Positions 2,431 through 56,989 of a stretch of DNA of 64,000 nucleotides are shown here, piece after piece. Origin of the DNA: Octopus vulgaris (Eukaryota); NCBI GenBank assembly GCA_951406725.2, contig OX597833.1, positions 45,074,001 through 45,138,000 of the forward strand, in the 5' to 3' direction. The notes beneath the pieces were generated by a model, which saw nothing but the letters and a program-made list of their open reading frames with translations, searched no databases and was not told where the DNA came from. The position numbers and the translations under genes were made by a program. Position 1 is the stretch's first letter. Each line of letters starts with the position of its first letter.

Positions 2431-2802
2431 CTATGGAGAAAAAGAGATGAGACATATATAGTATATATAGTGTATCATTCAACTACAGCAGTAGCTGAAT
2501 AATATTCTTAAGGACGCAATTTACACACACGCAGCACCTTTCAGAGCTTGTCACTAATTCAGTTCTTAACTAAATGGAAAACCAGTAGATGAAAATTGGT
2601 CCAGTAGAAAAATGTTTACAATAAAATTTGGAGTGACATTATAGGAGACTAAATAACACCACCAGTCAAGTTTAGATCTAAATAAAGCAAAATATATTCA
2701 TCTTAGCTTCAATGACAGAAGAAAGCATGAAGAATGTCATAGTTTTGTACCCATGCAACAAAAATTTGTATAAAAAAAGTTGGGAGGTAAAATATGAAAA
2801 TT

Positions 2803-5800
2803 CACTATCATTTCTTCCCCTGACTTGCAGCGATGTCCATGAGCAGGCTAAGATTTCTCGCTTCTATTTCATACATACATACATACATTTGTCTACCGTT
2901 TAAATGTTTTGAACTTATAACCACCAATCTGCTTTGCTTTCCTTTTCTCTCTACATGCCACCCTAAAAACATCGCCATTCCCGCCCGTTTCTCTAAAGTT
3001 CAACCTTCGCATATTCCCTTTAATTCGATCTCCACCATTCACTATCATTTCTTCCCCTGACTTGCAGCGATGTCCATGAGCAGGCTAAGATTTCTCGCTT
3101 CTATTTTCATACATACATACATTTGTCTACCGTTTAAATGTTTTGAACTTATAACCACCAATCTGCTTTGCTTTCCTTTTCTCTCTACATGCCACCCTAA
3201 AAACATCGCCATTCCCGCCCGTTTCTCTAAAGTTCAACCTTCGCATATTCCCTTTAATTCGATCTCCACCATTCACTATCATTTCTTCCCCTGACTTGCA
3301 GCGATGTCCATGAGCAGGCTAAGATTTCTCGCTTCTATTTCATACATACATACATACATTTGTCTACCGTTTAAATGTTTTGAACTTATAACCACCAATC
3401 TGCTTTGCTTTCCTTTTCTCTCTACATGCCACCCTAAAAACATCGCCATTCCCGCCCGTTTCTCTAAAGTTCAACCTTCGCATATTCCCTTTAATTCGAT
3501 CTCCACCATTCACTATCATTTCTTCCCCTGACTTGCAGCGATGTCCATGAGCAGGCTAAGATTTCTCGCTTCTATTTCATACATACATACATACATTTGT
3601 CTACCGTTTAAATGTTTTGAACTTATAACCACCAATCTGCTTTGCTTTCCTTTTCTCTCTACATGCCACACTAAAAACATCGCCATTCCCGCCCGTTTCT
3701 CTAAAGTTCAACCTTCGCATATTCCCTTTAATTCGATCTCCACCATTCACTATCATTTCTTCCCCTGACTTGCAGCGATGTCCATGAGCAGGCTAAGATT
3801 TCTCGCTTCTATTTTCATACATACATACATTTGTCTACCGTTTAAATGTTTTGAACTTATAACCACCAATCTGCTTTGCTTTCCTTTTCTCTCTACATGC
3901 CACCCTAAAAACATCGCCATTCCCGCCCGTTTCTCTAAAGTTCAACCTTCGCATATTCCCTTTAATTCGATCTCCACCATTCACTATCATTTCTTCCCCT
4001 GACTTGCAGCGATGTCCATGAGCAGGCTAAGATTTCTCGCTTCTATTTTCATACATACATACATTTGTCTACCGTTTAAATGTTTTGAACTTATAACCAC
4101 CAATCTGCTTTGCTTTCCTTTTCTCTCTACATGCCACCCTAAAAACATCGCCATTCCCGCCCGTTTCTCTAAAGTTCAACCTTCGCATATTCCCTTTAAT
4201 TCGATCTCCACCATTCACTATCATTTCTTCCCCTGACTTGCAGCGATGTCCATGAGCAGGCTAAGATTTCTCGCTTCTATTTCATACATACATACATTTG
4301 TCTACCGTTTAAATGTTTTGAACTTATAACCACCAATCTGCTTTGCTTTCCTTTTCTCTCTACATGCCACCCTAAAAACATCGCCATTCCCGCCCGTTTC
4401 TCTAAAGTTCAACCTTCGCATATTCCCTTTAATTCGATCTCCACCATTCACTATCATTTCTTCCCCTGACTTGCAGCGATGTCCATGAGCAGGCTAAGAT
4501 TTCTCGCTTCTATTTTACATACATACATACATTTGTCTACCGTTTAAATGTTTTGAACTTATAACCACCAATCTGCTTTGCTTTCCTTTTCTCTCTACAT
4601 GCCACCCTAAAAACATCGCCATTCCCGCCCGTTTCTCTAAAGTTCAACCTTCGCATATTCCCTTTAATTCGATCTCCACCATTCACTATCATTTCTTCCC
4701 CTGACTTGCAGCGATGTCCATGAGCAGGCTAAGATTTCTCGCTTCTATTTCATACATACATACATACATTTGTCTACCGTTTAAATGTTTTGAACTTATA
4801 ACCACCAATCTGCTTTGCTTTCCTTTTCTCTCTACATGCCACCCTAAAAACATCGCCATTCCCGCCCGTTTCTCTAAAGTTCAACCTTCGCATATTCCCT
4901 TTAATTCGATCTCCACCATTCACTATCATTTCTTCCCCTGACTTGCAGCGATGTCCATGAGCAGGCTAAGATTTCTCGCTTCTATTTCATACATACATAC
5001 ATTTGTCTACCGTTTAAATGTTTTGAACTTATAACCACCAATCTGCTTTGCTTTCCTTTTCTCTCTACATGCCACCCTAAAAACATCGCCATTCCCGCCC
5101 GTTTCTCTAAAGTTCAACCTTCGCATATTCCCTTTAATTCGATCTCCACCATTCACTATCATTTCTTCCCCTGACTTGCAGCGATGTCCATGAGCAGGCT
5201 AAGATTTCTCGCTTCTATTTCATACATACATACATACATTTGTCTACCGTTTAAATGTTTTGAACTTATAACCACCAATCTGCTTTGCTTTCCTTTTCTC
5301 TCTACATGCCACCCTAAAAACATCGCCATTCCCGCCCGTTTCTCTAAAGTTCAACCTTCGCATATTCCCTTTAATTCGATCTCCACCATTCACTATCATT
5401 TCTTCCCCTGACTTGCAGCGATGTCCATGAGCAGGCTAAGATTTCTCGCTTCTATTTTCATACATACATACATTTGTCTACTGTTTAAATGTTTTGAACT
5501 TATAACCACCAATCTGCTTTGCTTTCCTTTTCTCTCTACATGCCACCCTAAAAACATCGCCATTCCCGCCCGTTTCTCTAAAGTTCAACCTTCGCATATT
5601 CCCTTTAATTCGATCTCCACCATTCACTATCATTTCTTCCCCTGACTTGCAGCGATGTCCATGAGCAGGCTAAGATTTCTCGCTTCTATTTTACATACAT
5701 ACATACATTTGTCTACCGTTTAAATGTTTTGAACTTATAACCACCAATCTGCTTTGCTTTCCTTTTCTCTCTACATGCCACCCTAAAAACATCGCCATTC

Positions 5801-8800
5801 CCGCCCGTTTCTCTAAAGTTCAACCTTCGCATATTCCCTTTAATTCGATCTCCACCATTCACTATCATTTCTTCCCCTGACTTGCAGCGATGTCCATGAG
5901 CAGGCTAAGATTTCTCGCTTCTATTTTCATACATACATACATTTGTCTACCGTTTAAATGTTTTGAACTTATAACCACCAATCTGCTTTGCTTTCCTTTT
6001 CTCTCTACATGCCACCCTAAAAACATCGCCATTCCCGCCCGTTTCTCTAAAGTTCAACCTTCGCATATTCCCTTTAATTCGATCTCCACCATTCACTATC
6101 ATTTCTTCCCCTGACTTGCAGCGATGTCCATGAGCAGGCTAAGATTTCTCGCTTCTATTTCATACATACATACATACATTTGTCTACCGTTTAAATGTTT
6201 TGAACTTATAACCACCAATCTGCTTTGCTTTCCTTTTCTCTCTACATGCCACCCTAAAAACATCGCCATTCCCGCCCGTTTCTCTAAAGTTCAACCTTCG
6301 CATATTCCCTTTAATTCGATCTCCACCATTCACTATCATTTCTTCCCCTGACTTGCAGCGATGTCCATGAGCAGGCTAAGATTTCTCGCTTCTATTTCAT
6401 ACATACATACATACATTTGTCTACCGTTTAAATGTTTTGAACTTATAACCACCAATCTGCTTTGCTTTCCTTTTCTCTCTACATGCCACCCTAAAAACAT
6501 CGCCATTCCCGCCCGTTTCTCTAAAGTTCAACCTTCGCATATTCCCTTTAATTCGATCTCCACCATTCACTATCATTTCTTCCCCTGACTTGCAGCGATG
6601 TCCATGAGCAGGCTAAGATTTCTCGCTTCTATTTTACATACATACATACATTTGTCTACCGTTTAAATGTTTTGAACTTATAACCACCAATCTGCTTTGC
6701 TTTCCTTTTCTCTCTACATGCCACCCTAAAAACATCGCCATTCCCGCCCGTTTCTCTAAAGTTCAACCTTCGCATATTCCCTTTAATTCGATCTCCACCA
6801 TTCACTATCATTTCTTCCCCTGACTTGCAGCGATGTCCATGAGCAGGCTAAGATTTCTCGCTTCTATTTCATACATACATACATACATTTGTCTACCGTT
6901 TAAATGTTTTGAACTTATAACCACCAATCTGCTTTGCTTTCCTTTTCTCTCTACATGCCACCCTAAAAACATCGCCATTCCCGCCCGTTTCTCTAAAGTT
7001 CAACCTTCGCATATTCCCTTTAATTCGATCTCCACCATTCACTATCATTTCTTCCCCTGACTTGCAGCGATGTCCATGAGCAGGCTAAGATTTCTCGCTT
7101 CTATTACATACATACATACATTTGTCTACCGTTTAAATGTTTTGAACTTATAACCACCAATCTGCTTTGCTTTCCTTTTCTCTCTACATGCCACCCTAAA
7201 AACATCGCCATTCCCGCCCGTTTCTCTAAAGTTCAACCTTCGCATATTCCCTTTAATTCGATCTCCACCATTCACTATCATTTCTTCCCCTGACTTGCAG
7301 CGATGTCCATGAGCAGGCTAAGATTTCTCGCTTCTATTTCATACATACATACATTTGTCTACCGTTTAAATGTTTTGAACTTATAACCACCAATCTGCTT
7401 TGCTTTCCTTTTCTCTCTACATGCCACCCTAAAAACATCGCCATTCCCGCCCGTTTCTCTAAAGTTCAACCTTCGCATATTCCCTTTAATTCGATCTCCA
7501 CCATTCACTATCATTTCTTCCCCTGACTTGCAGCGATGTCCATGAGCAGGCTAAGATTTCTCGCTTCTATTTACATACATACATACATTTGTCTACCGTT
7601 TAAATGTTTTGAACTTATAACCACCAATCTGCTTTGCTTTCCTTTTCTCTCTACATGCCACCCTAAAAACATCGCCATTCCCGCCCGTTTCTCTAAAGTT
7701 CAACCTTCGCATATTCCCTTTAATTCGATCTCCACCATTCACTATCATTTCTTCCCCTGACTTGCAGCGATGTCCATGAGCAGGCTAAGATTTCTCGCTT
7801 CTATTTCATACATACATACATACATTTGTCTACCGTTTAAATGTTTTGAACTTATAACCACCAATCTGCTTTGCTTTCCTTTTCTCTCTACATGCCACCC
7901 TAAAAACATCGCCATTCCCGCCCGTTTCTCTAAAGTTCAACCTTCGCATATTCCCTTTAATTCGATCTCCACCATTCACTATCATTTCTTCCCCTGACTT
8001 GCAGCGATGTCCATGAGCAGGCTAAGATTTCTCGCTTCTATTTCATACATACATACATACATTTGTCTACCGTTTAAATGTTTTGAACTTATAACCACCA
8101 ATCTGCTTTGATTTCCTTTTCTCTCTACATACCACCCTAAAAACATCGCCATTCCCGCCCGTTTCTCTAAAGTTCAACCTTCGCATACTCCCTTTAATTC
8201 GATCTCCACCATTCACTATCATTTCTTCCCCTGACTTGCAGCGATGTCCATGAGCAGGCTAAGATTTCTCGCTTCTATTTCATACATACATACATACATT
8301 TGTCTACCGTTTAAATGTTTTGAACTTATAACCACCAATCTGCTTTGCTTTCCTTTTCTCTCTACATGCCACCCTAAAAACATCGCCATTCCCGCCCGTT
8401 TCTCTAAAGTTCAACCTTCGCATATTCCCTTTAATTCGATCTCCACCATTCACTATCATTTCTTCCCCTGACTTGCAGCGATGTCCATGAGCAGGCTAAG
8501 ATTTCTCGCTTCTATTTCATACATACATACATACATTTGTCTACCGTTTAAATGTTTTGAACTTATAACCACCAATCTGCTTTGCTTTCCTTTTCTCTCT
8601 ACATGCCACCCTAAAAACATCGCCATTATCGCCCGTTTCTCTAAAGTTCAACCTTCGCATACTCCCTTTAATTCGATCTCCACCATTCACTATCATTTCT
8701 TCCCCTGACTTGCAGCGATGTCCATGAGCAGGCTAAGATTTCTCGCTTCTATTTCATACATACATACATACATTTGTCTACCGTTTAAATGTTTTGAACT

Positions 8801-11509
8801 TATAACCACCAATCTGCTTTGCTTTCCTTTTCTCTCTACATGCCACCCTAAAAACATCGCCATTCCCGCCCGTTTCTCTAAAGTTCAACCTTCTCATATT
8901 CCCTTTAATTCGATCTCCACCATTCGCTATCATTCTTCCCCTGACTTGCAGCGATGTCCATGAGCAGGCTAAGATTTCTCGCCTCTATTTCATACATACA
9001 TACATACATTTGTCTACCGTTTAAATGTTTTGAACTTATAACCACCAATCTGCTTTGCTTTCACTTTCTCTCTACATGCCACCCTAAAAACATCGCCATT
9101 CCCGCCCGTTTCTCTAAAGTTCAACCTTCGCATATTCCCTTTAATTCGATCTCCACCATTCACTATCATTTCTTCCCCTGACTTGCAGCGATGTCCATGA
9201 GCAGGCTAAGATTTCTCGCTTCTATTTCATACATACATACATACATTTGTCTACCGTTTAAATGTTTTGAACTTATAACCACCAATCTGCTTTGCTTTCC
9301 TTTTCTCTCTACATGCCACCCTAAAAACATCGCCATTCCCGCCCGTTTCTCTAAAGTTCAACCTTCGCATATTCCCTTTAATTCGATCTCCACCATTCAC
9401 TATCATTTCTTCCCCTGACTTGCAGCGATGTCCATGAGCAGGCTAAGATTTCTCGCTTCTATTTCATACATACATACATACATTTGTCTACCCTTTAAAT
9501 GTTTTGAACTTATAACCACCAATCTGCTTTGCTTTCCTTTTCTCTCTACATGCCACCCTAAAAACATCGCCATTCCCGCCCGTTTCTCTAAAGTTCAACC
9601 TTCGCATATTCCCTTTAATTCGATCTCCACCATTCACTATCATTTCTTCCCCTGACTTGCAGCGATGTCCATGAGCAGGCTAAGATTTCTCGCTTCTATT
9701 TCATACATACATACATACATTTGTCTACCGTTTAAATGTTTTGAACTTATAACCACCAATCTTCTTTGCTTTCCTTTTCTTACTACATCCCACCCAAAAA
9801 ACATCCCCTTTCCCGCCCTTTTCTCTAAAGTTCAACCTTCGCATATTCCCTTTAATTCGATCTCCACCATTCACTATCATTTCTTCCCCTGACTTGCAGC
9901 GATGTCCATGAGCAGGCTAAGATTTCTCGCTTCTATTTCATACATACATACATACCATTGTCTACCGTTTAAATGTTTTGAACTTATAACCACCAATCTG
10001 CTTTGCTTTCCTTTTCTCTCTACATGCCACCCCAAAAACATCGCCATTCCCGCCCGTTTCTCTAAAGTTCAACCTTCGCATACTCCCTTTAATTCGATCT
10101 CCACCATTCACTATCATTTCTTCCCCTGACTTGCAGCGATGTCCATGAGCAGGCTAAGATTTCTCGCTTCTATTTCATACATACATACATACATTTGTCT
10201 ACCGTTTAAATGTTTTGAACTTATAACCACCAATCTGCTTTACTTTCCTTTTCTCTCTACATGCCACCCTAAAAACATCGCCATTCCCGCCCGTTTCTCT
10301 AAAGTTCAACCTTTGCATATTCCCTTTAATTCGATCTCCACCATTCACTATCATTTCTTCCCCTGACTTGCAGCGATGTCCATGAGCAGGCTAAGATTTC
10401 TCGCTTCTATTTCATACATACATACATACATTTGTCTACCGTTTAAATGTTTTGAACTTATAACCACCAATCTGCTTTGCTTTCCTTTTCTCTCTACATG
10501 CCACCCTAAAAACATCGCCATTCCCGCCCGTTTCTCTAAAGTTCAACCTTCGCATATTCCCTTTAATTCGATCTCCACCATTCACTATCATTTCTTCCCC
10601 TGACTTGCAGCGATGTCCATGAGCAGGCTAAGATTTCTCGCTTCTATTTCATACATACATACATACATTTGTCTACCGTTTAAATGTTTTGAACTTATAA
10701 CCACCAATCTGCTTTGCTTTCCTTTTCTCTCTACATGCCACCCTAAAAACATCGCCATTCCCGCCCGTTTCTCTAAAGTTCAACCTTCGCATATTCCCTT
10801 TAATTCGATCTCCACCATTCACTATCATTTCTTCCCCTGACTTGCAGCGATGTCCATGAGCAGGCTAAGATTTCTCGCTTCTATTTCATACATACATACA
10901 TACATTTGTCTACCGTTTAAATGTTTTGAACTTATAACCACCAATCTGCTTTGCTTTCCTTTTCTCTCTACATGCCACCCTAAAAACATCGCCATTCCCG
11001 CCCGTTTCTCTAAAGTTCAACCTTCGCATATTCCCTTTAATTCGATCTCCACCATTCACTATCATTTCTTCCCCTGACTTGCAGCGATGTCCATGAGCAG
11101 GCTAAGATTTCTCGCTTCTATTTCATACATACATACATACATTTGTCTACCGTTTAAATGTTTTGAACTTATAACCACCAATCTGCTTTGCTTTCCTTTT
11201 CTCTCTACATGCCACCCTAAAAACATCGCCATTCCCGCCCGTTTCTCTAAAGTTCAACCTTCGCATATTCCCTTTAATTCGATCTCCACCATTCGCTATC
11301 ATTTCTTCCCCTGACTTGCAGCGATGTCCATGAGCAGGCTAAGATTTCTCGCTTCTATTTCATACATACATACATACATTTGTCTACCGTTTAAATGTTT
11401 TGAACTTATAACCACCAATCTGCTTTGCTTTCCTTTTCTCTCTACATGCCACCCTAAAAACATCGCCATTCCCGCCCGTTTCTCTAAAGTTCAACCTTCG
11501 CATATTCCC
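2803..11509. repeat. Tandem array of ~37 near-identical 233-237-bp units
   Basis: Unit attcactatcatttcttcccctgacttgcagcgatgtcc...ttcgatctccacc repeated head-to-tail. Length variation lies almost entirely in the internal T-run/(cata)n. The last unit is truncated at 11509. Confidence 0.98.
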
Positions 11510-12004
11510 GGTGCACCCGCCCTTGCCCACCCCCACCACCAATACCGGATATCTCTATATTTTTGTTCCATCTATACCGGATGTCGCTTCTCCCACCACC
11601 ATTATAGGTGTCTACTCTTCGAACCCCCCTCTCAGCACGCTATTTCACCATGCATTACCCCTCTCTTGATATCCTACGTTCTACTTGCCTAGAACCTGTC
11701 ATCATTTCTCTGAACCACCCCTCCCCACTGGTGCTCCCCTATATATTTCTATACCCCCCCCCCACATAAAAAGCACCATCCGAACGTGGCCGATGCCAGA
11801 CCCCTCTGGCACCTGTGCAGGTGGCACGTAAAAAACACCCACTACACTCGCGGAGTGGTTGGCGTTAGGAAGGGCATCCAGCTGTAGAAACACTGCCAGA
11901 CTAGACTGGAGCCTGGGGCAGTCCCGAGCTCCCCAGACCCCGGTCGAAACCGTCCAACCCGTGCTAGCGCGGAAAACGGACGTTAAACGATGATGATGAT
12001 GAAG
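2803..12004 (+). mobile_element. Composite non-autonomous retroposon: tandem array + C-rich linker (11510-~11766) + RTE 3' end and (GAT)n tail (~11767-12004)
   Basis: The flanks atatgaaaatt| and |gcataaaattg are separated by only 12 bp in the paralogous empty site at 15709-15742. The 3' ~240 bp match the RTE 3' UTR. Confidence 0.8.
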
Positions 12005-13860
12005 GCATAAAATTGAATTTAAGCATAAATAACTTTTTTGTTTTAAAAACAAGCTATATTTTAATCAACCAATAATGCCAAAATTTTACTAGAGAATGAA
12101 ATTGCCTGAAAATTCACAGATACTATTATTTTGACCTAAATAATAACTGAAAAAAAATTTCATTGAAATCTGTTTGATACCGATTGCATACACATTAATA
12201 ACACCTTCCATACTGTGATACTGATCATACAGAAATCACAATTTGTATCAAGTATTTGTTTCACACCCTTTAAATTAAGTGCCAGTTGAAATGGACAATC
12301 AGTATGAATGGGTAAAGCTGAATTCCTATTTTCAACTTCCTAATTATTAATTAATAATTAAAAAAATATTTTAATTCTTTACTTTTAAAAGAAGTAACAA
12401 TTAATAACAAATAAATGTAATAAAGTGTAATAAAATTTTTAGTTTTAATAAATACTAATATTTTCTAAATCTAAATACTTCATTTGAACTTCTATCCTTA
12501 GCTGCAATATTTTAAGTAAAATCTTCTTGTTCTGTACTTTACCAGATGTAATAACTAGTCCTGAACTTTTCCAAGTGTAATAATAGGTCCTCTAATTTTC
12601 CAGGTTTATAAGCTTAAGAATATTATTTCTATTCCTCATATTTTTCCATGTAATATATATAGATAGTTAGGTTGAGATATACATATATATACACACATGC
12701 ATCCATACAAGCATGTAGATATACATATGTGTGTGTGTGTGTGTGTGTGTATGTATAGGCCACATGCTTACCAGCTGGTCAGTCTGTCTCACTACACAGT
12801 GTTTATACAATAAACATGCTGAGTAAAATGTACACGTTAAGAATAATTATTGTAATAATAATAACTAGCAGATCCCTTAAACATTTGACAGAATCAACAG
12901 TCGATTTCATGGCTTATTTGTGAAAACTTTACCCTAAAACTCTAAAAGCGTAGCCTGGGTTGTGTTTGTGTGAAAAGATGGTAAACATTCATTTTAGAAA
13001 TATATTCTTTATTCTTATTATTTAAGCATTACTCCCTCATTTCCTTACTGACATGAAATTTCGTAACATTTTACTTCACGACTCTTTTTCTACTTATTTT
13101 TGGTCAATGCAACTAGCGATTCTTAATTCCTCGTGCATTTTTCTATCATTTAAGACTAAGAAAAGTATACTTTTAATTTAAAATTTTAAAATTTATGTTA
13201 ATTGAAGATGAATATCTGCCTACTGCTCATCACCCACCTTGAGGTCACATTATATTTTAATGTAACTTTTTTCTACTGAACAAAGTCTCAAACTATTTAT
13301 GCCAAACTATAGCTGAGGAGGTGACCTCTTTAAAACTATTAACAGTTTGCAATTTAGTTGAGAACTGAATTAGTGGTGAAGCTTGGAAGCTGCTGTGTTT
13401 GATGAAATGGTGGACTTGAGAATATATTCAGCCAGTACCGTGGTTGAATGATATTAGAACTTCTTGGAAGCTCAATCAAATTGCTGGCCTACATACGTTA
13501 TTCACATCATTTCTTATTATTGATCTCGTCTTTTGTTCTTAATTTCATCATACTTTTACTTAGAAGTCTGCCACAAAAGGCAACAAAATAACCTGTAAAA
13601 TCATATCTTTATCAAACATATATGAAATATCTGTATGTAATAGGCAAATGTTAAAACCATTATTGAAATCAGTATGAAAAATAGTTCAGAATCACCTATA
13701 AGTAGACATTCATACTTTATTTCATTTAAAATTGCAAACTTGTGTAATCATAGATATTTATAAATAACTGTGTTTGTGTGTGTAAATGTTTTAAATATTT
13801 TTTCTAAGTGAAAACAATGCAATTTATGAATATTAATAACACAGGTTGATGGTTACTTAT

Positions 13861-13887
13861 GGGTGATGGTGGTGGCATTCAACATAC
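13861..13887 (-). pseudogene. 27-nt micro-exon slot with both splice sites lost
   Basis: ctccatAT|gtatgttgaatgccaccaccatcaccc|ATaagt. Paralog of 855-881 with a phase-0 stop. Confidence 0.45.
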
Positions 13888-14141
13888 ATATGGAGAAAAA
13901 GAGATGAGATACATGTATATAGTGCATATATAGATAAATATATTCTCATACATAGAGACATGTGCACATATGTGTTTGTACATCCATATGTATAGGCCAC
14001 ATGTATATCAGCCAGTATTTCATCAACAAAGATTAAAATGTATGTGTGTATTAATATGGCATCAATAATTAATTAGAATAATAATTCTATATTTATAAAT
14101 TTGTGTTGCAAGATTCTCCATGTTATACTATTATTTGAAAC

Positions 14142-14575
14142 ATATTGCTGCATATGGTGATGGTCATATATTTTTGTTTGCCAAATAGATACGTGCACTA
14201 TATATTCGTTCTTCCCCCATTTATTACTGTTCTTACTCTAACTCATGTCCATCATCCAGATACCTTTTGTCACACATCTGTGACCTCTTCAGTGACACTT
14301 TCCGTATTCGTGTTTGCTCTTGCTCTGCTTATTCCATTCTGTTCTTCTATGATGTGTCACATCATAAAAAAAAACAATGGAATGAGCAGAAGAAGAGCAC
14401 ACACGAATGCAGAAAGTGTTGCTGAAGAGGTCAGAGATGTGTGACAAAAGGTATCCAGACAATGGACTTAAGTTAGAATAAGAAGAGTAATAAACAAGTG
14501 AAGATCAGATATGTAGTGCATGTGTCTATTTGGCCAAAAAAGGAAAATAATGAACATCCCAAATGACAACAATAT
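14142..14575. mobile_element. Palindromic MITE-like hairpin, duplicate copy
   Basis: Paralog of 1218-1656. A half copy lies at ~18419-18715. Confidence 0.75.
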
Positions 14576-15323
14576 AATCATAATAATTAAACATTATGAA
14601 TTCTTCTTGTAAGCTTGTTTCACTATGTGGCCTGCATACATTATCCATATCTTATTTATTATTGTACTTAAATTCATCATACTTTTATCTAAGAGTCTAC
14701 CACAAAAAGCAATGAATGAGAAGAAAAATCATATCTTTAGCAGCCATTTATGGAAAATCTGTCTGTGACAGGCGGAAACTAAAAATATATTTGAAATCAG
14801 AATAAAAAATAGTTCTGAATCACTGAATAACCTATAAACAAACAATCAGCACTTATTTCATCTAAAAGTGCAGTTGTGTAATTATAGATATATAAAAATA
14901 ATCATGTGTGTGTATGTGTGTGCATGTGTGTGTGTAGATATATATATACATTTGTGTGTGTATGTGTTTGTGTATCTGTATGTGTGTGTGTGTTTGCATC
15001 TGTGTGTGTGTGTGAAAAAATCATCCAATGTTCTGTCATGAGGACCACAGACTTGAAGTGTTTCAAATTACAAGACACCATGTGAGAGAAAATCGCAATG
15101 TCATTGGAGCATAATGTGTCCACATGGATGATGGCTCACTTGCATTCAATATTGCTGCAAAGAGAGAGAAAGTCAAACTGTTCAACCCATGACAGCAAGG
15201 AATGTAGACGTTAAACAACGACGATGCCGATGATGACTATGTTAATGTTTTAAATATGTTTTCTAAGCCAAAACAATGCAGTTATAAATATTAATAATAT
15301 AGGTTGATGATTAGTTCCCTTAC

Positions 15324-15347
15324 CTGTCTTGCAGCATGATGGATTAT
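15324..15347 (-). CDS. Candidate 24-nt micro-exon
   Basis: ctccatag|ataatccatcatgctgcaagacag|gtaagg. Differs from 2407-2430 by three substitutions. Confidence 0.5.
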
Positions 15348-18082
15348 CTATGGAGAAAAAGAGATGAGACATATATAGTATATATAGTGTATCATTCAAC
15401 TACAGCAGTAGCTGAATAATATTCTTAAGGACGCAATTTACACACACGCAGCACCTTTCAGAGCTTGTCACTAATTCAGTTCTTAACTAAATGGAAAACC
15501 AGTAGATGAAAATTGATCCAGTAGAAAAATGTTTACAATAAAATTTGGAGTGACATTATAGGAGACTAAATAACACCACCAGTCAAGTTTAGATCTAAAT
15601 AAAGCAAAATATATTCATCTTAGCTTCAATGACAGAAGAAAGCATGAAGAATTTCATAGTTTTGTACCCATGCAACAAAAATTTGTATAAAAAAAGTTGG
15701 GAGGTAAAATATGAAAATTAATATAAGTAATGCATAAAATTGAATTTAAGCATAAATAACTTTTTTGTTTTAAAAACAAGCTATATTTTAATCAACCAAT
15801 AATGCCAAAATTTTACTAGAGAATGAAATTGCCTGAAAATTCACAGATACTATTATTTTGACCTAAATAATAACTGAAAATAAATTTCATTGAAATCTGT
15901 TTGATACCGATTGCATACACATTAATAACATCTTCCATACTGTGATACAGATCATTCAGAAATCACAATTTGTATCAAGTATTTGTTTCACACCCTTTAA
16001 ATTAAGTGTCAGTTGAAATGGACAATCAGTATGAATGGGTAAAGCTCAATTTGACAGAGCTCAATTCAAGGAATTTCATAGTATCAATCTCATGCAATGA
16101 AGTTCTAAAAGAAAATACTTATGAGTGTTTGTTTCTCAAATTTCAGGGTGATAATATAATTCTAAGACACTGTGAGGAATTTCATAGTTTTCATCTCATT
16201 AAATTAAACATTCTATTTATTGTTTTTGTATATCAATTAAAAAATAAAATTTACACACTCATAAATCTTTCACATTCATAATTTCGTTGACAATGTACAT
16301 TTGTATTTTAATCAGTTGCCTTTTAATTGCTCTAATTTTCACTTTTCATCTGTCTCTCTCTTCTTTACTAGGCTTGTTAATATAAAGGTCATAGCACAAT
16401 TTCTTCTGCAATTTATAAAACGTTTTTTTTATCTTGAAAACATTCGTTATATTAAAATTATTTTGTTAATTAATTTTAATTAATATATTATTATTGTACT
16501 AACTAATTATGTACTAGAATTATTTTTTATAACCTATTTTCAACTTCCTAATTATTAATTAATAATTAAAAAAATATTTTAATTCTTTATTTTTAAAAGA
16601 AGTAACAAGCAATAACAAATAAATGTAATAACGTGTAATAAAATTTTTAGTTTTAATAAATGCTAATATTTTCTAAATCTAAATATTTCATTTGAACTTC
16701 TATCCTTAGCTGCAATATTTTAAGTAAAATCTTCTTGTTCTGCACTTTACCAGGTGTAATAACTAGTCCTGAACATGTCCAAGTGTAATAATAGGTCCTG
16801 TAATTTTCCAGGTTTATAAGCTTAAGAATATTATTTCTATTCCTCATATTTTTCCATGTAATATATATAGAGATATAGTTAGGTTGAGATATACATATAT
16901 ATACACACATGCATCCATACAAGCATGTAGATATACATGTGTGTGTGTGTGTGCGTGTGTGTGTGTGTGTATAGGCCACATGTGTACCAACTGGTCAGTC
17001 AGTCTCACTACACAGTGTTTATACAATAAACATGCTGAGTAAAATGTACATGTTAAGAATAATTATTGTAATAATAATAACTAGCAGATCCCTTAAACGT
17101 TTGAAAGAATCAAAAGTCGACTTCATGGCTTATTTCTGAAAACTTTACCCTAAAACTCTAAAAGCGTAGCCTGGGTTGTGTTTGTGTGAAAAGATGGTAA
17201 ACATTCATTTTAGAAATATATTCTTTATTCTCATTCTTGGAGCATTACTCCCTCATTTCCTTACTGACATGAAATTTCGTAACATTTTACTTCACGACTC
17301 TTTTTCTACTAATTTTTGTTCAATGCAACTAGCGATTCTTAATTCCTCGTGCATTTTTCTATCATTTAAGACTAACAAAAGTATACTTTAAATATAAAAT
17401 TTTAAAATTTATGTTAATTGAAGATGAATATCTGCCTACTGCTCATCACCCACCTTGAGGTCACATTATATTTTAATGTAACTTTTTTCTACTGAACAAA
17501 GTCTCAAACTATTTATGCCAAACTATAGCTGAGGAGGTGTCCTCTTTAAAACTATTAACAGTTTGCAATTTAGTTGAGAACTGAATTAGTAGTGAAGCTT
17601 GGAAGCTGCTGTGTTTGATGAAATGGTGGACTTGAGAATATATTCAGCCAGTACTGTGGTTGAATGATATTAGAACTTCTTGGAAGCTCACTAAAATTGC
17701 TGGCCTACATACATTATTCACATCATTTCTTATTATTGATCTCGTCTTTTGTTCTTAATTTCATTATACTTTTACCTGGAAGTCTGCCACAAAAGGCAAC
17801 AAAATAACCAGTAAAATCATATCTTTACCAAACATTTATGAAAAATCTGTATGTGATAGGCAAAGATTAAAACCATTATTGAAATCAGTATGAAAAATGG
17901 TTCAGAATCACCTATAAGTAGACAATCATAATTTATTTCATTTAAAATTGCAGACTTGTGTAATCACAGATATTTATAAATAATTGTGTTTGTATGTGTG
18001 TCTGTAAATGTTTTAAATATTTTTTCTTAGTGAAAACAATGCAATTTATAAATTTCAATAACACAGGTTGATGGTTACTTAC

Positions 18083-18124
18083 GTAAGGCATTGGCTTCCT
18101 GCATTGAGTCTTTCTCATGCATAC
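18083..18124 (-). CDS. Candidate 42-nt micro-exon
   Basis: cttctttttctccatag|gtatgcatgagaaagactcaatgcaggaagccaatgccttac|gtaagt. Confidence 0.5.
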
Positions 18125-18881
18125 CTATGGAGAAAAAGAAGTGATATATACATATATATATATATATAGTGTATATATAGATAAATATATACTCATACAT
18201 AGAGACATGCACACACATGTGTGTGTTTGTGCATTCATACGTATAGGCTACATGTATATCAGCCAGTATCTTTTCTCTTTGTATAATGTTTAAAAAGAAA
18301 TATGTTGATGAAAATATACGTGTGTATTAATATGGCATTAATAATTAATTAGAATACTAATGTCTACATTTATGAATTTGTGTTGCAAGATTCCTTGTGT
18401 GAAACCGTGTGTTGAAAGATATTGCTGTACATGGGGATGGTCATACTTTTTTCGTTTTTTGCCAAATAGATACGTGCACTATATATTCGTTCTTCACACA
18501 TTTATTACTGTTCTTACTCATGTCCATCATCCGGAAACCTTTTGTCACACATCTGTGACCTCTTCAGCAACACTTACTGTATTTGTGTGTGCTCTGCATA
18601 TTCCATTCTAAGACCTCTTCAGTGACACTTTCCGTATTCATGTGTGCTCTCGCTCTGCTTATTCCATTTTGTTCTTCTATCGTGGGTCACATATAATGGG
18701 TCACATCATAGAAGAAGACAATCATAATTTATTTCATTTAAAATGGCAGACTTGTGTAATCACAGATGTTTATAAATAACTGTGTTTGTGTGTGTGTGTG
18801 TGTAAATGTTTTAAATATTTTTTTCTAAGTGAAAACAATGCAATTAATAAATATTAATAACACAGGTTGATGGTTACTTAC

Positions 18882-18926
18882 CTGGAATATTCCTGCCTGA
18901 GTGTCATCAGTGTTTCTTATGCATAC
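18882..18926 (-). CDS. Candidate 45-nt micro-exon
   Basis: cttccttttctccatag|gtatgcataagaaacactgatgacactcaggcaggaatattccag|gtaagt. Open only in phase 0 (VCIRNTDDTQAGIFQ). Confidence 0.5.
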
Positions 18927-18950
18927 CTATGGAGAAAAGGAAGTGAGATA

Positions 18951-21900
18951 ATCATCATCATCATCATCGTTTAATGTCCGTTTTCCGCGCTAGCACAGGT
19001 TCGACCGTGGTCTGGGAAGCAAGGAGGCTGCACCAGGCTCCAGTCTGATCTGGCAATGTTTCTACAGCTGGATGCCCTTCCTAACGCCAACCACTCCGTG
19101 AGTGTAGTGGGTGCTTTTTACGTTTCACCGGCACAGGTGCCAGGGGAGTCTGGCAGCGGCCATGATTGGTTGGTGCTTTTAACGTGCCACTGGCACGGAA
19201 GCCAGTCGAGGCGACACTGGCATCGGCCACATTCGGACGGTACTTTTTACATGCAACCGGCACAGAAGCCAGTTAAGGCAGCGCTGGCATCAGCCACGTT
19301 CGGATGGTGCTTTTTATGTGCCACCAGCACAGGTATTACAACTACTATTTCCATTGATATTTATTTCGATGTTCATGTACTTGACTCAATAGGTCTCCTC
19401 AAGCACAGCGGGTTGTTCTGAAATCCAAGGTACTTTGAATGGGCTGGGGCTATGCGGAGCTGGTGCAGGAAGCAGCCCGGGTCTTTGCAGTCACAGCATA
19501 TCTCCAGAGATCTCGGTCCTTCGTCATTGCCTCTGTGAGGCCCAATGCTCTGAGGTCATGCTTGACTACCTCATCCCATGTCTTCCTGGGTCTACCTCTC
19601 CCCCTGATACCTTCAACTGTTTGGGAGTGGCACTTCTTCACACATCTCTCCTCATCCATCCACAGTACATGACCATACCATCGCAAGCGTCGCTCTTGCA
19701 CACCACATCTGATGCTTCTTATGTCCAGCATTTCTCTCAGGGTGCTTACACTCTGTCGTGCGTGCACACTGACATTACACATCCAGCGGATCATGCTAGC
19801 TTCATTTCTTTCAAGTCTACGCATGTCCTCTGCAGTCACAGCCCATGTTTCACTGCCGTGAAGCATGGCAGTTCACACACATGCATCATACAATCTACCT
19901 TTCACTCTGAGCGAGAGACCCTTTGTTGCCAGTAGGGGTAGGAGCTTTCTAAACTTTGCCCAGGCTATTCGTATTCTAGTGGTGACACTCTCTGAGCATC
20001 CACCTCCACAACTATCTTGGTCACCTAGGTAGCGGAAACTATCAACTACTTCTAGTTTCTCCCCCTGGAGTGTGATGGAATCTGTTTTCTGAGTATCTGT
20101 GGTGTCTATTGTCCCGGTGCATCTGCCGCACATGAAAGCTATCTTATCAGTTACTTTCCCTTTGATGTTGCTGCACCTCTTATGCGTCCATAGCTTACAG
20201 TGGGTACATCTTATGGAGTTTCTACCTACACCTTTCCTACAGATCAAGCAGGGCCACCTGCTCGAGGGGACGTGTGCTGAGTTCGCCTTTCTGCTTACTA
20301 TAACTTTGGTCTTTGCTACATTTACTCTAAGGCCCTTTGATTCTAAACCTTGCTTCCACACCCGAAATTTCTTTTCTAGTTCCGGTAGTGATTCTGCTAT
20401 GAGAGCCAGGTCATCAGCATAGAGGAGCTCCCAGGGGCAACCTGTTTTGAATTCCTCTGTTATTGCCTGAAGGACTATGATGAATAAAAGGGGACTGAGG
20501 GCTGAACCTTGGTGTACACCTACTTCTACCCGGAATTCTTCACTATATTCATTGCCAATCCTAACCTTGCTGACAGCCCCTCTGTATAGGGCCTGTACAG
20601 CCCTTATTAGCCATTCGTCAATCTCCAGTTTCCATATCGACCACCAGATAAGGGATCGGGGGACCCTGTCAAAGGCTTTCTCCAAGTTCACAAAAGCTAT
20701 GTAGAGGGGTTTATCTTTAGCTAGGTATTTCTCCTAGCTATGTCGGACCAGGAATATAGCATCAGTGGTGCTTCTGCCTGGCACAAAATCGAACTGCATC
20801 TCATCTAAGCAAATTCTCTCCCTAATGAGATGGGTTATGACCCTCTCTGTGACCTTCATCACCTGATACAACAGTTTAATACCCCTGTAGTTATTTCTAT
20901 CTAGAGCATCACCTTTACCCTTGTAGCAGTTGACTATGGTGCTGCTACTCCAGTCATTGGGTATGACTCCATTGTGAACTACCTGGTTTACAATGCGGGT
21001 GACTAGGCCATAGCCCACACAACCAGTTGTTTTAAGCATCTCAGCAGTGATTCCTGATGGGCCAGGGGCTTTTCCTGGTTTCATACTCTTAATTGCCTTA
21101 ACTACAAGGGAGCTGTCTATTTGGATAGCTGGTCCCTCTACCGGGTCAACATTTGGCAGGCTCTCCTCCTCCCATTCATTCTCCACATTCAGCTGTCTTT
21201 CATAATGGCTTCTCCAAGCCTCTTTCTTTTCACAATCATTAAAAGCAAGTGCACCATCATCCATACGGATACATTTCTCTCCTGTAACATCACTATTTTC
21301 TCTCACACACTGTCTAGCAATCCGAAATACCTCGGTTCTTTGGTCCTCACATTGCTGGACATTGGCAAACTTCTTTTCTGCTACATCTTTGGCTATGTAT
21401 ACCTGCCGCCCAGCCTCCCTTTTGGCTACCTGGTACAGTTCCCTGCTACCCCCATCCCTCCAGGCTTTCCGGCCTGTTTCTTTGCTCTAATGGCTTTGTC
21501 TACTGTACTATTCCACCACCATGTAACTTTAGGTCTGGAAGGGACTTTGCACCATCCACAGACTTGGTCTGTGGCACTCAGCAAGCTGTCCCGTAGGAAT
21601 TTCCAGCTACCTTCTATGTCCGATGTCTGTAGCTCCTCATCCCTCACATCAAATTTCTTGATGAGGATGTCCCTAAATCTCTGACCATGTGAAGGGTTCT
21701 TTAGCTTCCAAATCCTTCCTTTCTGGATTGGTCTGTTTCTTGGTATCCTTCTGGTCTCAAGCCTAAAGTCACTAATGATTAGCCTATGATGAGGAGTACA
21801 TTCTTCACCCGGGAGGGTCTTTGTATTTAAGAGCAACCCTGCATCCCGCTGTCTGGTGAGGATGAAGTCTATTTCGCTAGCGGAGTCCCCTGACTGATAG

Positions 21901-22475
21901 GTTATAAGGTGGTAGTCTGGCTTCCTGAAGTTAGTGTTTCAGATTAAAAGGTTACATGCATCACAGAATTCCAGTAGTCTAGTTCCCTCATCATTTCTGG
22001 TGCCAATACCATGGCCACCGTGTACCCAAGTGAATATACCCGATTCCCGCCCAACATGCCCATTAAAGTCTCCACCCACAAAGATGAGGTCTTTGCCACT
22101 CGTCTTTGAGGTAGCCTGTAGAAGGGTATCATAAAAGTGGTCCTTCTGATCATTTGGTAGCCCCGCATGTGGGGCATAGGCAGGGATAATCGTAGCTGTG
22201 CCACTCTGTAGGACTAAACTGAGCTTAAGCACTCTATCGCAAACCCTGACAATCTCTATGACCTTATCCACCCATTTCTCTGCAAGGAGAATGCCTACAC
22301 CCCCTACACCATCCATGTTACCTTGCCAGAAGACTTTATACCTATGTGCCTTGCCTGTGAGGACCCTACCTGAAGCACATCTCCATCTTACCTCTTGTAT
22401 GCAGCATACATCAACCCGTCTTCTCTCAAGCATCTCTACAATCTCACTACACCTACCTTTCAGTGTACCAACACT
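18951..22475 (-). mobile_element. RTE-clade LINE, nearly complete ORF (APE endonuclease + RT + PHD-like Cys motif), frameshifted, lacking 5' UTR
   Basis: ORF pieces VGTLKGR..CIQEVRW..GDFNGHVG (APE), KAFDRVPR, GVHQGSALSPLLF, LLYADDL (RT), CLICRKGVGRNSIRCTHC. (cat)n tail at 18951. Confidence 0.95.
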
Positions 22476-22672
22476 GATATATATATATATATATATATAT
22501 ATAGATAAATATATACTCATACATATAGAGACATGCACAATTGTGTGTGTTTGTGCATTCTTATGTATAGGCCACATGTATATCAGCCAGTATCTTTTCT
22601 CTTTGTATAATGTTTAAAAAGAAATATGTTGATGAAAATATACGTGTGTATTAATATAGCATTAAAATTAAT

Positions 22673-24925
22673 TCGTTTAACGTCCGTTCTCCATGCTAGC
22701 ATGGGTTGGACGGTTCGACCGGGGATCTGGGAAGCCAGAAGGCTGCACCAGGCTCCGGTCTTATCTGGCAATGTTTCTACAGCTGGATGCCCTTCCTAAC
22801 GCCAACCACTCCGTGAGTGTAGTGGGTGCTTTTTACGTGCCACCTGCACTGGTGCCAGGCGAGGCTGGCATCGGCCACGGTCGGATTTGGTGCATTTTAT
22901 GTGCCACCTGCATGGAAGCCAGTCGAGGTGGCACTGGCTTCGGCCACGATTCGGATGGTGCTTTTTATGTGCCACTGACACGGAAGCCAGTCGAGGCGGC
23001 GCTGGCATCGGCCACGATTCGGATAGTGCTTTTTACGTATCTCCAGTCCAGGGGTCCTGGCATCTGCCGGGTGCCAGTCATAGGATTGGTTCAATTTCGA
23101 TTCCGATTTCACTTGCCCCAACAGGTCTTCGCAAGCAAAGGGGGGTAGGCATAGGTGCCTGTCGTCGGATGAGGTTCGATATCGACTTCGCTTGCCTCAA
23201 CAGGTCTTTGTGTGTCCGAGGGAGGAAAGGCATGCATAAGTGGGCTGGACTCACTTGTCCTGCCTGGTCTTTTCACGCACAGCATATTTCCAAAGGTCTC
23301 GGTCGCTGGTCATTTCCTCAGTGAGACCTAAAGTTCGAAGGTCGTGCTTCACTACCTCGTCCCAAGTTTTCCTGGGTCTACCTCTTCCACGGGTTCCCTC
23401 CACTGTTAGGGATTGGCACTTTTTCACACACCTATCTTCATCCATTCTCGCCACATGACCATACCAGCGCAATCGTCTCTCTTGCACACCACAACTGATG
23501 CTCCTTAGGTACAACATTTCTCTCAGGGTACTAATGCTCTGTCGAGCATGCACACTGACATTACACATCCATCGGAGCATACTGGCTTCATTTCTCATGA
23601 GCTTACGCATGTCCTCAGCAGTCACGGACCATGTTTCACTGCCATGTAGCATGGCTGTTCGTACACATGCATCATACAGTCTGCCTTTTACTCTGAGCGA
23701 GAGGCCTTTAGTCACCAGCAGAGGTAAGAGCTCCCTAAACTTTGCCCAGGCTATTCTTACTCTAGCCGTTACACTTTCAGCACACCCACCCCCACTACTG
23801 ACTTGGTCACCAAGATAATGGAAGCTGTCAACTACTTCTAGTTTTTCCCCCTGGAAAGTGACGAAAGTTGTTTTCTGCAGATTTTCAGAGGTTAATGCTC
23901 CCGAGCATCTGCCACATACAAAAACCATCTTCCTAGTTAGCCTTCCTATGACATTGCTGCACCTCTTATGTGTCCATAGCTTACACTTGGTGCATCTTAT
24001 AGAGTTTCTACCTACACCTTTTCTACAGATCGAGCAGGGCCATCTACCTGAAGGCGTTTGTGATTTGTCTACCTTCCTACTTATTACGACTTTGGTTTTA
24101 GCTAGATTGACTCTAAGGTCCTTCGATTCCAAACCTTGCTTCCACACTTGAAACTTCTTCTCCAGTTCTGATAGTGACTCAGCAATTAGAGCAAAGTCCT
24201 CAGCATAGAGGAGCTCCCAGGGGCATCCTGTCTTGAATTCCTCCGTTATTGCCTGGAGGACTATGATAAATAGGAGGGGGCTGAGGACTGAGCCTTGGTG
24301 GACCCCTACCTCTACCCAGAATTCTTCACTGTACTCGTTGCCAACCCTCACCTTACTAGCAGCGTCCCTGTACATGGCTCGCACAGCTCTCACTAACCAT
24401 TCATCTATTCCTAGTTTCCTCATTGACCACCAGATGAGGGATCGGGGGACCCTGTCGAAGGCTTTCTCCATGTCAACAAAAGCCAGGTACAGGGGTTTAT
24501 CTTTGGATAGGTATTTCTCCTGCAGCTGCCTTACCAGGAATATAGCATCAGTGGTACTTTTCCCTGGCACGAACCCAAACTGCATCTCATCTAAACTAAC
24601 TCTCTCTCTAATTAGTTGGCTTATGACCCTCTCTGTAACCTTCATCACCTGATCCAACAGCTTGATACCTCTGTAATTATTTGTATCTAGGGCATCACCT
24701 TTACCTTTGTAGCAGTTGACTATTATGCTGCTACACCAGTCATTGGGTATGACTCCTTCATGTATCACCTGATTAACTATACGGGTGACTAGGCTATAGC
24801 CAACACTACCAGATATTTTGAGCATCTCTGCAGTGATACCTGATGGGCCTGGGGCTTTCCCTGTCTTCATGCTTCTAATTGCCTTAGCTACCAAGGAACT
24901 ATCAACCCTGATGGCTGGTCCCTTT
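22673..24925 (-). mobile_element. 5'-truncated RTE LINE with uninterrupted RT-to-C-terminus ORF (23251-~24925); catalytic YADD changed to YAED
   Basis: The 568-aa ORF track entry has QFGFVPG, FVDMEKAFD, GVHQGSVLSP, LLYAEDF. The 3' UTR terminus is shared with other copies. Confidence 0.95.
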
Positions 24926-24974
24926 AGCCAGTGCGGATGCGCGTGCAACAGGACCACTCTTCTTGAATAGTACC
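24925..24974. mobile_element. Terminal fragment of the MULE-like MITE family seen at 39933-40214
   Basis: gcggatgcgcg...caggaccactcttcttgaatagtacc matches the right TIR at ~40158-40214. Confidence 0.6.
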
Positions 24975-31309: not shown

Positions 31310-31463
31310 CTTAACACTGTCTCCTGCAGCTTCAAGTAACGGCTTAACCAGATTTATATAGTTCTTAATAATGGCCAGATGTAGTGGACTATGACCTTCA
31401 TCATTTTGTATATTGACTTTAGCCCCATAGTTCAGCATTAAGCTCATCACCTCAAGATGGTTG
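31310..31463 (-). CDS. Ankyrin-repeat protein, exon (154 nt, phase 2 to 0)
   Basis: tttcag|C AAC CAT...NHLEVMSLMLNYGAKVNIQNDEGHSPLHLAIIKNYINLVKPLLEAAGDSVK|gtgagt. Contains the ankyrin motif G-x-S/T-PLHLA. Confidence 0.88.
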
Positions 31464-31536
31464 CTGAAAGTTACAGAAATTGTAAAAATATATAAGTCAA
31501 AGACAATGAGATTAAATATAGATTTACAGGATTCTA

Positions 31537-31606: not shown

Positions 31607-32096
31607 TCTCTCTCGTGCTCTCTCGCTCTCTCTCTCTCTCGCTATGTGGTGTCGGTTTCTCCCTCTGTTATCACTGTCTCTCTCTCTCTCTCTCTGTATA
31701 TATCTCACCTTCACTCGCTTCCACAGGCTTAGCCAATACGCAGGATGAAAAATATCACCTAAGTCCTGTTCCTCTTTTCATTGTTTTTGCAAGTATCATC
31801 ATCACCATCAAGCCTTCTTATTATTATTGTTTCCCCATATATTAGCGTTATCGTTGTCTTTCGTCTCAAATGCTAGCTGAAGCATATAAACTTTCACTCA
31901 CAAAAACTTCGCAAAAACATCTCGTCTCAAATCTGGTCTTTCTTTCTGTCGCTTAATTCTCTAACCCATCTTTTCCCAACTTCCACTCATAGAAACTTAT
32001 GCACACGATCGCAAAGCATTCCATCTCAAATCCTGTCTTTCTTTCTGCCGCCTAAATCTCATCTTCTCCCAGTGCGCGGTGTCGTTTTGTCCCTCT

Positions 32097-32146
<50 letters not shown>

Positions 32147-33091
32147 GCTCTCTCTTTCTCTCGCTATGTGGTGTCGGTTTCTCCCTCTGTTATCAATGTC
32201 TCTCTCTCTCTCTCTGTATATATCTCACCTTCACTCGCTTCCACAGGCTTAGCCAATACGCAGGATGAAAAATATCACCTAAGTCCTGTTCCTCTTTCCA
32301 TTGTTTTTGCAAGTATCATCATCACCATCAAGCCTTCTTATTATTATTGTTTCCCCATATATTAGCGTTATTGTTGTCTTTCGTCTCAAATGCTAGCTGA
32401 AGCATATAAACTTTCACTCACAAAAACTTCGCAAAAACATCTCGTCTCAAATCTGGTCTTTCTTTCTCCCAGTGCGCGGTGCGCCCGCCCTCCCACCCCC
32501 ACCACCAATACCGGTGAACACTGTTCTCACCATCTACACCGGATACTCCCTCCTCCTCCCCCACCACCCCTTCCTACCCCTTCTCCTCATATGCTTTCAC
32601 TGTGAAAAGAGAAGCTGCTAGCGTCACAGCTCATCAACCGCCCACTGATCTTACGCTTCCTCCTGTTTTGAATCTGACACTGCCTCAATCCTACTATCTC
32701 CTTCCAGTCCCCTCCACGCCTCGTAATATCCTACGTTTTTATTTCTTACGAACCTGCACCAACCCTTCCTGCCATCGTTCCTCCTTACCCCCCAACCTTC
32801 CCCACCCCTACCCATTAAAAGTACCCCGGATCCTGTTGCCCCCGTGCCGCTGGCACGTTAAAAGCTCGAACCGATCGTGACCGATGCCGGACCCCCCGGC
32901 CCCTGTGCACGTAAAAAGCACCCACTCCACTCACGGAGTGGTTGGCGTTAGGAAGGGCATCCAGCCGTAGAAACTCTGCCAGATCAGACTGGAGCCTGGA
33001 GCGGCCCCTGGCTTCCCAGACCCCGGTCGAACCGTCCAACCCGTGCTAGCGCGGAAAACGGACGTTAAACGATGATGATGATGATGATGAT
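31607..33091 (+). mobile_element. Second composite retroposon: ~1.7 copies of a ~522-bp unit + C-rich linker + RTE 3' end and (GAT)n tail
   Basis: 31641-31947 is repeated at 32163-32468. Linker motifs are shared with 11510-11698. RTE terminus at ~32820-33091, flanked by (TA)n on both sides. Confidence 0.75.
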
Positions 33092-33385: not shown

Positions 33386-34124
<739 letters not shown>

Positions 34125-55039: not shown

Positions 55040-55725
55040 TGCTACTTTATCCTACATAGATATCCCCTTATCATTATCCATGCTGCCCTTCTCCGGGCAC
55101 GATCTGTGGACTTGCCTCTGCTCATTCTCCTCATACCTGCCCAACCCTTACCCATCTCCTGTTTCCCCTCACCTATCACCCCTCCAACACACCATTCTCT
55201 GAGCCTTCCAGCGACTCCTGTCTGACCCCTCCACTTTGCACATCTTCCCTAACCTACCACTACCCTCCTTCAAATGCACTCATAACTTGTGACCTCCTGG
55301 TTCACAATTTCTTTCTTAACCCGCCTCCCAGCCTGTTCCTTCCCTTGCTCCTGCCCATGCTACTACACCTGACCCTACCTCTCCAATACTACCATCCTCA
55401 CAAGCACCCATCCTTATCTCTATCATGTCACCAACTCCTTTACCTACACCTCTAGTAATGTCATTTACTGCATCTCCAGCTCTCTGTCCTTCCCTGTAAA
55501 TTGGTCCAACTTAGCTGACCAGTTCGCAGAACAGCTCCAGGACATCAGACTTGGCAATGATACCCCTGTCTAACACCATTTCTGCTTTACCTGTCCTTTG
55601 CTACAACATCTGACTGTTTTCAGACTGTCTCTGCACAGGAGCCATCCGGACTCTCACTTTCGCTATGTACAGGAATTAGTCTTCTCTCTTCGTTCCTTTG
55701 CACCACATGGGCTCAACTCATCTCC
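55040..55725 (+). pseudogene. Penelope-like element GIY-YIG endonuclease relic
   Basis: Fragments translate to PLTYHP, SFTYTSSNVIYCIS, LADQFAEQLQDIRLGNDTPV and LRSFAPHGLN, typical of the PLE linker/GIY-YIG C-terminus. Confidence 0.75.
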
Positions 55726-56113: not shown

Positions 56114-56168
<55 letters not shown>

Positions 56169-56980: not shown

Positions 56981-56989
56981 GTATATATA

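Follow-up and report, generated by a model that had tools for sequence, protein, structure and literature searches.

How does a homogeneous tandem array come to occupy a site which stands empty in a nearby duplicate of the same DNA? This question is raised by a locus of Octopus vulgaris contained in a stretch of 64,000 nucleotides (NCBI GenBank assembly GCA_951406725.2, contig OX597833.1, positions 45,074,001 to 45,138,000 of the forward strand), in the following called the window and numbered from its first letter. The locus carries an insert, element 1, in which a head-to-tail array of 237-bp units is followed by a C-rich linker and the 3′ tail of a long interspersed nuclear element (LINE) of RTE type; a second, shorter copy, element 2, shows the same order of parts with another repeat. 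With a probability of roughly 0.58, we read the insert as a 5′-truncated copy of a composite non-coding family, which was inserted by target-primed reverse transcription (TPRT) from its (GAT)n end and closed by microhomology joining. Directly seen, and forming the basis of this reading, are the architecture, the empty site, the linker start common to both copies, their unrelated units, and the lack of a long reading frame. Transposon-derived satellites as such are well known (PMC9659126).

Element 1 and its site comprise the following parts:
2803 to 11509, plus strand: tandem array of element 1, 37 units of 233–237 bp with a (CATA)n tract in each
11510 to 11762, plus strand: C-rich linker of element 1, its first ~95 nt conserved with element 2
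11763 to 12002, plus strand: LINE (RTE-type) 3′ tail of element 1 with predicted stem-loops, ending in (GAT)4GA
2800 to 2802, plus strand: ATT microhomology of flank and unit at the 5′ junction, 3 nt
12003 to 12004, plus strand: two extra bases at the 3′ junction or, from the junction comparison, target with one substitution
14031 to 16051, plus strand: sister duplicate with the empty site, including 12 bp (15720-15731) that the filled copy lacks

The empty sister site had been claimed by a sequence-only reading of this DNA and is borne out by both flanks, the left one (1108-2802) matching 14031-15719 at 97.2% and the right one (12002-12324) matching 15729-16051 at 97.8%. Substitutions adjoining the site amount to 10/700 on the left and 6/318 on the right (1.4–1.9%). 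Because the sister duplicate has an empty site at this divergence, the insertion is younger than the ~1.5–2%-diverged duplication, unless the sister represents the second haplotype, put in tandem position; a real duplication is favoured, though not proven, by the older nested duplicates in the vicinity (78–90% identity).

At its 3′ end, element 1 stops where the (GAT)n microsatellite tail stops (terminus C(GAT)4GA, 11989-12002). At its 5′ end, the first array unit is truncated to 216 bp, lacking the first 21 nt (18 nt if the microhomology is counted), and meets the flank in the 3-bp ATT microhomology, which was correctly recognised earlier; microhomology of at least 3 nt is on offer at 8 of the 237 possible breakpoints in the unit. 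The previous statement that a target site duplication (TSD) is missing likewise holds for element 1, where the lone flank-end word after the tail (6 nt) already occurs in the empty site. The loss of target sequence stands as well, and the 12 bp formerly given are a possible figure when combined with two extra bases; a loss of 9 bp with one substitution fits equally. The missing TSD, the loss of 9–12 bp, the 3-nt microhomology and the possible two extra bases are also marks of end joining, as would be left by DNA-level copying of a pre-existing array, linker and tail into a double-strand break (templated insertion, ectopic synthesis, or a DNA circle) without any RNA step, and a length of 9 kb is easier to obtain from a DNA template. 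Such a route is improbable, however, since the insert breaks off on its 3′ side where the tail naturally ends, as does element 2, and microhomology joining together with extra nucleotides is normal at LINE 5′ junctions (PMC4760211).

The window contains two LINE copies bearing open reading frames (ORFs), of which the first is a candidate for the partner family of element 1:
18951 to 22476, minus strand: broken, 5′-truncated ORF-bearing LINE with endonuclease, reverse transcriptase and PHD-like finger; same tail; candidate partner family
22673 to 24926, minus strand: second 5′-truncated ORF-bearing LINE; same tail, different proximal 3′ untranslated region (UTR)

The tail of element 1 matches five other places in the window at 83–88%, two of them being the tails of these LINE copies; a tail which is common to LINEs of the same genome and ends in a microsatellite is a feature of RTE-mobilised retroposons. 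The partition into a ~250-bp linker and a LINE tail, proposed from the sequence alone, is thus retained (11510-11762 and 11763-12002, with five related tails in the window). Divergence is 8% from the tail of element 2 and 10–18% from the other four and, because the tail differs by 8–18% from all others in the window, its source lineage, to judge from these distances, lies outside the window. The 18951-22476 LINE, which also has a sister site, served as a control; apart from ~3 nt within an (AT)n tract, it has no TSD. We provisionally assign the partner LINE to the RTE clade. The combination of endonuclease, reverse transcriptase, PHD-like finger (below cut-off) and microsatellite tail fits descriptions of RTE elements, and the octopus element RTE-2_OV carries a zinc finger (PMC9115989). 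A full-length partner LINE was found neither in the window nor in the scanned collections. The LINE 3′ UTR contains 62–68 bp tandem repeats in variable number before its conserved end (19110-19333, 22822-23038, 342-476), and elements 1 and 2 retain only the last of these repeats and a bit more.

The structure of the tail was predicted from the four other tails, with elements 1 and 2 left out. The tails of elements 1 and 2 differ from these four at 16 and 13 columns, respectively, and none of the 38 predicted pairs is broken, where 3.8 (element 1) and 3.6 (element 2) broken pairs would be expected (P ~0.01 each). This is modest evidence that the predicted stems may be under constraint.

Element 2 (31607-33091), overlooked in the sequence-only reading, lies at a distance of 20 kb and has the part order of element 1, with two units of 400–520 bp, a linker and a tail:
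31607 to 32481, plus strand: tandem region of element 2, with a 5′-cut unit (31607-32081) and a second unit with an internal deletion (32082-32481), 97% alike
32478 to 32853, plus strand: C-rich linker of element 2, homologous to 11510-11762
32854 to 33091, plus strand: LINE tail of element 2, ending in (GAT)7 within an (AT)n tract

The motif at the linker start of element 1 (11510) recurs at 32478, giving two matches in the window and none in 100 shuffles, and homology between the elements begins at the same five bases, CGGTG. Upon alignment of the two linkers, the first ~95 nt reach a z of 12.9 and the distal part a z of 3.4 (400 shuffles each); both linkers meet the tail at approximately the same point. 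Upstream of the linker, no likeness of the units was detectable (p 0.41–0.97 in two forward-strand comparisons under three scorings), and unit homology was rejected, with 106 of 800 background windows scoring equally high. The linker is not unique to element 1. That element 2 joins the same linker start and tail to another repeat suggests a family with an exchangeable repeat module rather than the one-off satellite capture previously envisaged.

Units and linkers of both elements share a pyrimidine-rich composition with 10–11% G. Of the window's eight G-quadruplex-type motifs, taken as sequence motifs only, four are found in the two linkers, all on the minus strand; each linker has one at its start, that of element 1 being at 11516-11534. 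On inspection, the unit–linker junctions offered no convincing donor or acceptor of splice type, and Rfam yielded only two below-threshold microsatellite matches on element 2. Just 3′ of element 2, an uninterrupted (AT)n/(AC)n microsatellite extends over ~725 bp (33387-34112). Strongly skewed and likewise C-rich, a stretch with a 29-bp repeat at 55060-56660 has no significant match to either linker.

The main rival to a composite non-coding family concerns exactly these parts. Elements 1 and 2 could be 5′-truncated autonomous LINE subfamilies, in which the tandem repeat and the linker constitute a variable 3′ UTR; the insertion mechanism would be the same, and no separate non-autonomous family would exist. 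The two ORF-bearing copies in the window indeed differ in their proximal 3′ UTR before the common tail, plant RTEs have variable and conserved 3′ UTR parts (bioRxiv 10.1101/2022.11.04.512097), and the linker end of element 2 (32805-32831) matches at 22 of 27 nt the sequence just 3′ of the LINE stop codon at 19450 (p 0.002, one of 12 pairs tested). However, this match is absent from element 1, the stop-adjacent motif comes only after ~330 nt of linker in element 2, and 16 comparisons of linkers and units with both ORFs, in either orientation, gave none above the best of 60 shuffles. Overall, the variable 3′ UTR appears an unlikely account of the two elements.

The array itself has the make-up of a satellite, being long, homogeneous and arranged head-to-tail. 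Tandem Repeats Finder (TRF) describes 2800-11509 with a period of 237, 36.9 copies and 98% matches, and splitting in the phase set by the linker junction gives 37 units, in agreement with the ~37 units of 237 bp counted earlier. The modal unit sequence is found exactly in 13 of the 37 units; outside the microsatellite, 26 substitutions (0.34% from the modal unit; 23 distinct, 2 shared) were counted. A coding repeat (237 nt corresponding to 79 codons) is ruled out by stop codons in all six frames of the unit. Units and linker have stops in six frames and no likeness to the LINE ORFs, and as both elements are 5′-cut, an ORF may have been present further upstream in the source; among ORFs of at least 120 aa, only two chance frames touch element 1 (11315-11692 and 11702-12064). 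Neither a stable fold nor a ribozyme was found in the unit or the linker start (z −1.7 to +1.5). The core motif of hammerhead ribozymes is CTGANGA; it occurs on neither strand of element 1, and Rfam and ARAGORN gave 0 matches there, so that a retrozyme was rejected. A HINE/DINE-1 Helentron was rejected, too, as no inverted pair brackets unit and linker (11273-12030), the array adjoins the flank directly, and the target is modified. The head of a short interspersed nuclear element (SINE) derived from tRNA, 5S or 7SL RNA was not found in either copy, both of which lack their own 5′ end, and initiator-like words at the 5′ end were discounted as too short.

Words from unit and linker are present in 20 of 24 listed sequencing runs (8 studies, 3 organism labels; four runs at half or more of the words), and hence this sequence is not an invention of the assembly. 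None of the listed runs with such words is an RNA run. Motif scans for further copies returned 0 loci in metagenome contigs, viral contigs and prokaryote genomes, where octopus DNA is not expected.

Whether the array arrived long is a question of its own. Later expansion at the DNA level is a real possibility, rated somewhat below even odds; one-step delivery of most of the 37 units is held possible more tentatively, and a unit count inflated by assembly is considered rather unlikely. The number of 37 units probably owes something to DNA-level expansion or to assembly as well. At least two unit variants probably entered with the insert, because one allele, which differs from the modal unit by two steps, is found five times. 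Long arrival is favoured by the terminal units, which are modal or one change off, and by identical length alleles being adjacent no more often than by chance (3/19 neighbours versus 3.7 expected). Against it stand the length of the insert relative to active RTE copies, given below, and the fact that LAVA repeats change at the DNA level and not during reverse transcription (PMC4432496).

The same observations on terminal units and length alleles, together with the common CGGTG start of homology beside a minus-strand G-quadruplex motif, would also suit an array made during insertion, in which the reverse transcriptase copied tail and linker and then jumped repeatedly onto a 237-nt RNA or circled an RNA. 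Yet the five-fold recurrence of the two-step allele is unlike a single circular template, the unit has neither ribozyme motif nor stable fold, and de novo LAVA insertions kept their variable number of tandem repeats unchanged (PMC4432496); we judge this origin of the array highly improbable. A more general form, in which the linker would serve the octopus RTE reverse transcriptase as a docking point for switching to repeat RNAs of unrelated sequence, with many rounds of copying within a single reaction, is doubtful; if true, one tail-plus-linker module would seed ready-made multi-kilobase arrays of different sequence genome-wide.

Finally, an unrelated array could have been scaffolded to a linker-plus-tail copy, creating false junctions. 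The junctions are known here from assembled sequence; unit variants partly resemble consensus noise, with unit 30 having 8 private substitutions; three length alleles resemble hybrids of two others; and 56986-57400 resembles a long-read fold-back elsewhere in the window. Such an artefact is nevertheless scarcely credible, given that both flanks match the sister duplicate to within 12 bp and that the order of unit, linker and tail is repeated independently in element 2. Because some alleles look like consensus hybrids and because of the fold-back-like stretch, unit order and number may partly be an artefact. The stretch in question is an inverted copy (56986-57400 / 57860-58054, 95% over 196 bp) decaying into AT-only sequence.

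Returning to the composite family, its insertion would have proceeded in several steps. A source copy would have been transcribed through units, linker and tail; a LINE protein would have bound the tail stems in trans and primed at (GAT)n; reverse transcription would have halted within a unit; and the 5′ end would have been joined via the 3-nt microhomology with 9–12 bp of target being lost. Between lineages, the repeat module upstream of the linker may be exchanged in the way of LINE 5′ ends. From the sequence-only reading, the insertion of a repeat-holding RNA by LINE machinery thus gains support—from the 3′ junction at the (GAT)n end, the kept stems, and the second element with the same linker and tail—while delivery of all 37 units as one insertion is not borne out.

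Several points weigh against this reading. A T-stretch upstream of the insertion is a reported signature of RTE-type sites (PMC6007223) and is absent from the 25 nt upstream of element 1, which, moreover, has lost 9–12 bp of target instead of gaining a TSD. No full-length LINE 5′ end to which the linker start might be traced was found in the window or the scanned collections. Because some of the changes in the tail are common to both elements, their P values depend on each other, and there is little two-sided covariation (1 of 41 pairs, with 228 of 500 shuffles equally high). The run matches stand for the presence of words in unaligned reads and are silent on where the parts join; the run richest in these words may itself come from the animal behind the assembly. 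At ~9.2 kb, the insert has close to double the average length of RTE copies that were recently active in O. vulgaris, for which 907,388 bp over 182 copies are listed (PMC13282606 Table 1). All 13 length variants fall within units 2-21 (p 0.001), and the units with substitutions are found further on (p 0.013), a clustering that may be assembly noise. Lastly, two family members are seen in 64 kb, and element 2 has only two imperfect units.

Among known systems, both elements resemble bipartite RTE derivatives and RTE-tailed SINEs (Bov-A, RTESINE1/2, WALLSI3, Ceph-SINE) in having a non-coding body, a microsatellite-ended RTE-type tail and a conserved segment upstream of it (PMC5786205). Those elements are short, with a piece of RTE 5′ UTR or a small-RNA head (PMC5786205), whereas here the upstream part is a tandem array of up to 8.7 kb with a unit differing between copies; the likeness is one of architecture. 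SINEs with LINE-derived heads have been described from molluscs, with short terminal repeats being mentioned (PMC4758252). LINE 5′ end switching is a further parallel, placing non-homologous 5′ modules on a conserved body, as in the tandem monomer promoters of mouse L1 (PMC3600994) and in tobacco SolRTE (bioRxiv 10.1101/2022.11.04.512097). Mouse L1 and SolRTE differ in being autonomous and ORF-bearing with few monomers.

A different comparison is offered by SVA and LAVA, which carry a poly(A) tail. Like these, the elements are composites with a tandem-repeat block whose unit number is changeable at the DNA level, moved by a LINE in SVA/LAVA (PMC4432496) and presumably so here. SVA/LAVA are hominoid, L1-driven, and contain short GC-rich internal units (PMC4432496); in contrast, the present elements have an Octopus host, an RTE-type (GAT)n tail, and C/T-rich units of 237 or 400–520 bp that are not common to both copies. 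Identity with SVA was rejected on the grounds of the non-hominoid host and the (GAT)n in place of an L1-type poly(A) end. Mobile arrays of few-hundred-base monomers are also known from animal non-LTR retrozymes (bioRxiv 10.64898/2026.07.22.740005) and from DINE-1/HINE Helentrons, with HINEs also containing microsatellites (PMC4067079); unlike them, element 1 lacks a hammerhead core and subterminal inverted repeats, its target is modified, and it ends in a LINE tail. The literature search yielded no description of a repeat-carrying composite family; Repbase, Dfam and the O. vulgaris library lay outside this search, and the family may be listed there as an unclassified repeat. No paper contained any of three short motifs, and motif searches drew a blank in the supplements of PMC13282606 and of PMC9115989 (files 5-8 left out). 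The composite family is probably undescribed so far.

With regard to the genomic setting, both elements lie within a host gene:
2401 to 39228, minus strand: host ankyrin/RING (MIB2-like) gene, exons by protein mapping

The ankyrin exon at 31310-31477 (minus strand) has protein matches of 100% (82% of query) in Octopus vulgaris, 96% in O. sinensis and 87% in O. bimaculoides, and the ankyrin proteins of these species map to exons 39228-39127, 36972-36814, 31462-31307 and 18926-18879; the RING half of the host protein has no mapping inside the window. Because Octopus ankyrin proteins map to minus-strand exons around it, element 1, like element 2, is intronic and antisense to this gene. Small exon-like pieces on the minus strand (2401-2430, 15318-15341, 18077-18124, 18879-18926) have been multiplied by nested tandem duplications; the protein model of O. 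sinensis contains similar peptides, that of O. vulgaris just one of them. These duplications are of several ages (78–98% identity; 513-2802 and 12002-22673), with different LINE insertions interrupting each copy. An imperfect palindrome of ~440 bp (80% self-inverted), resembling a miniature inverted-repeat transposable element, is present in both duplicates (1218-1656 and 14142-14575), and 60273-61264 (minus strand) holds broken endonuclease-like frames from a different LINE family.

As a rule, the arrival of satellites at new loci is reconstructed in retrospect. The present window combines a young array and its two junctions with the unoccupied target and a sister element carrying another repeat, which makes an RNA route directly testable. 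If a variable 3′ UTR and later expansion were to apply, the locus would be a neat but unremarkable example. Should the family be confirmed, it would represent an SVA-like vehicle for tandem repeats that is run by an RTE-type LINE in a mollusc, and it would bear on two sets of repeats reported for O. vulgaris, the satellites, with 80 families making up 3.12% of the genome, and the active SINEs still unclassified, with 893 families (PMC13282606).

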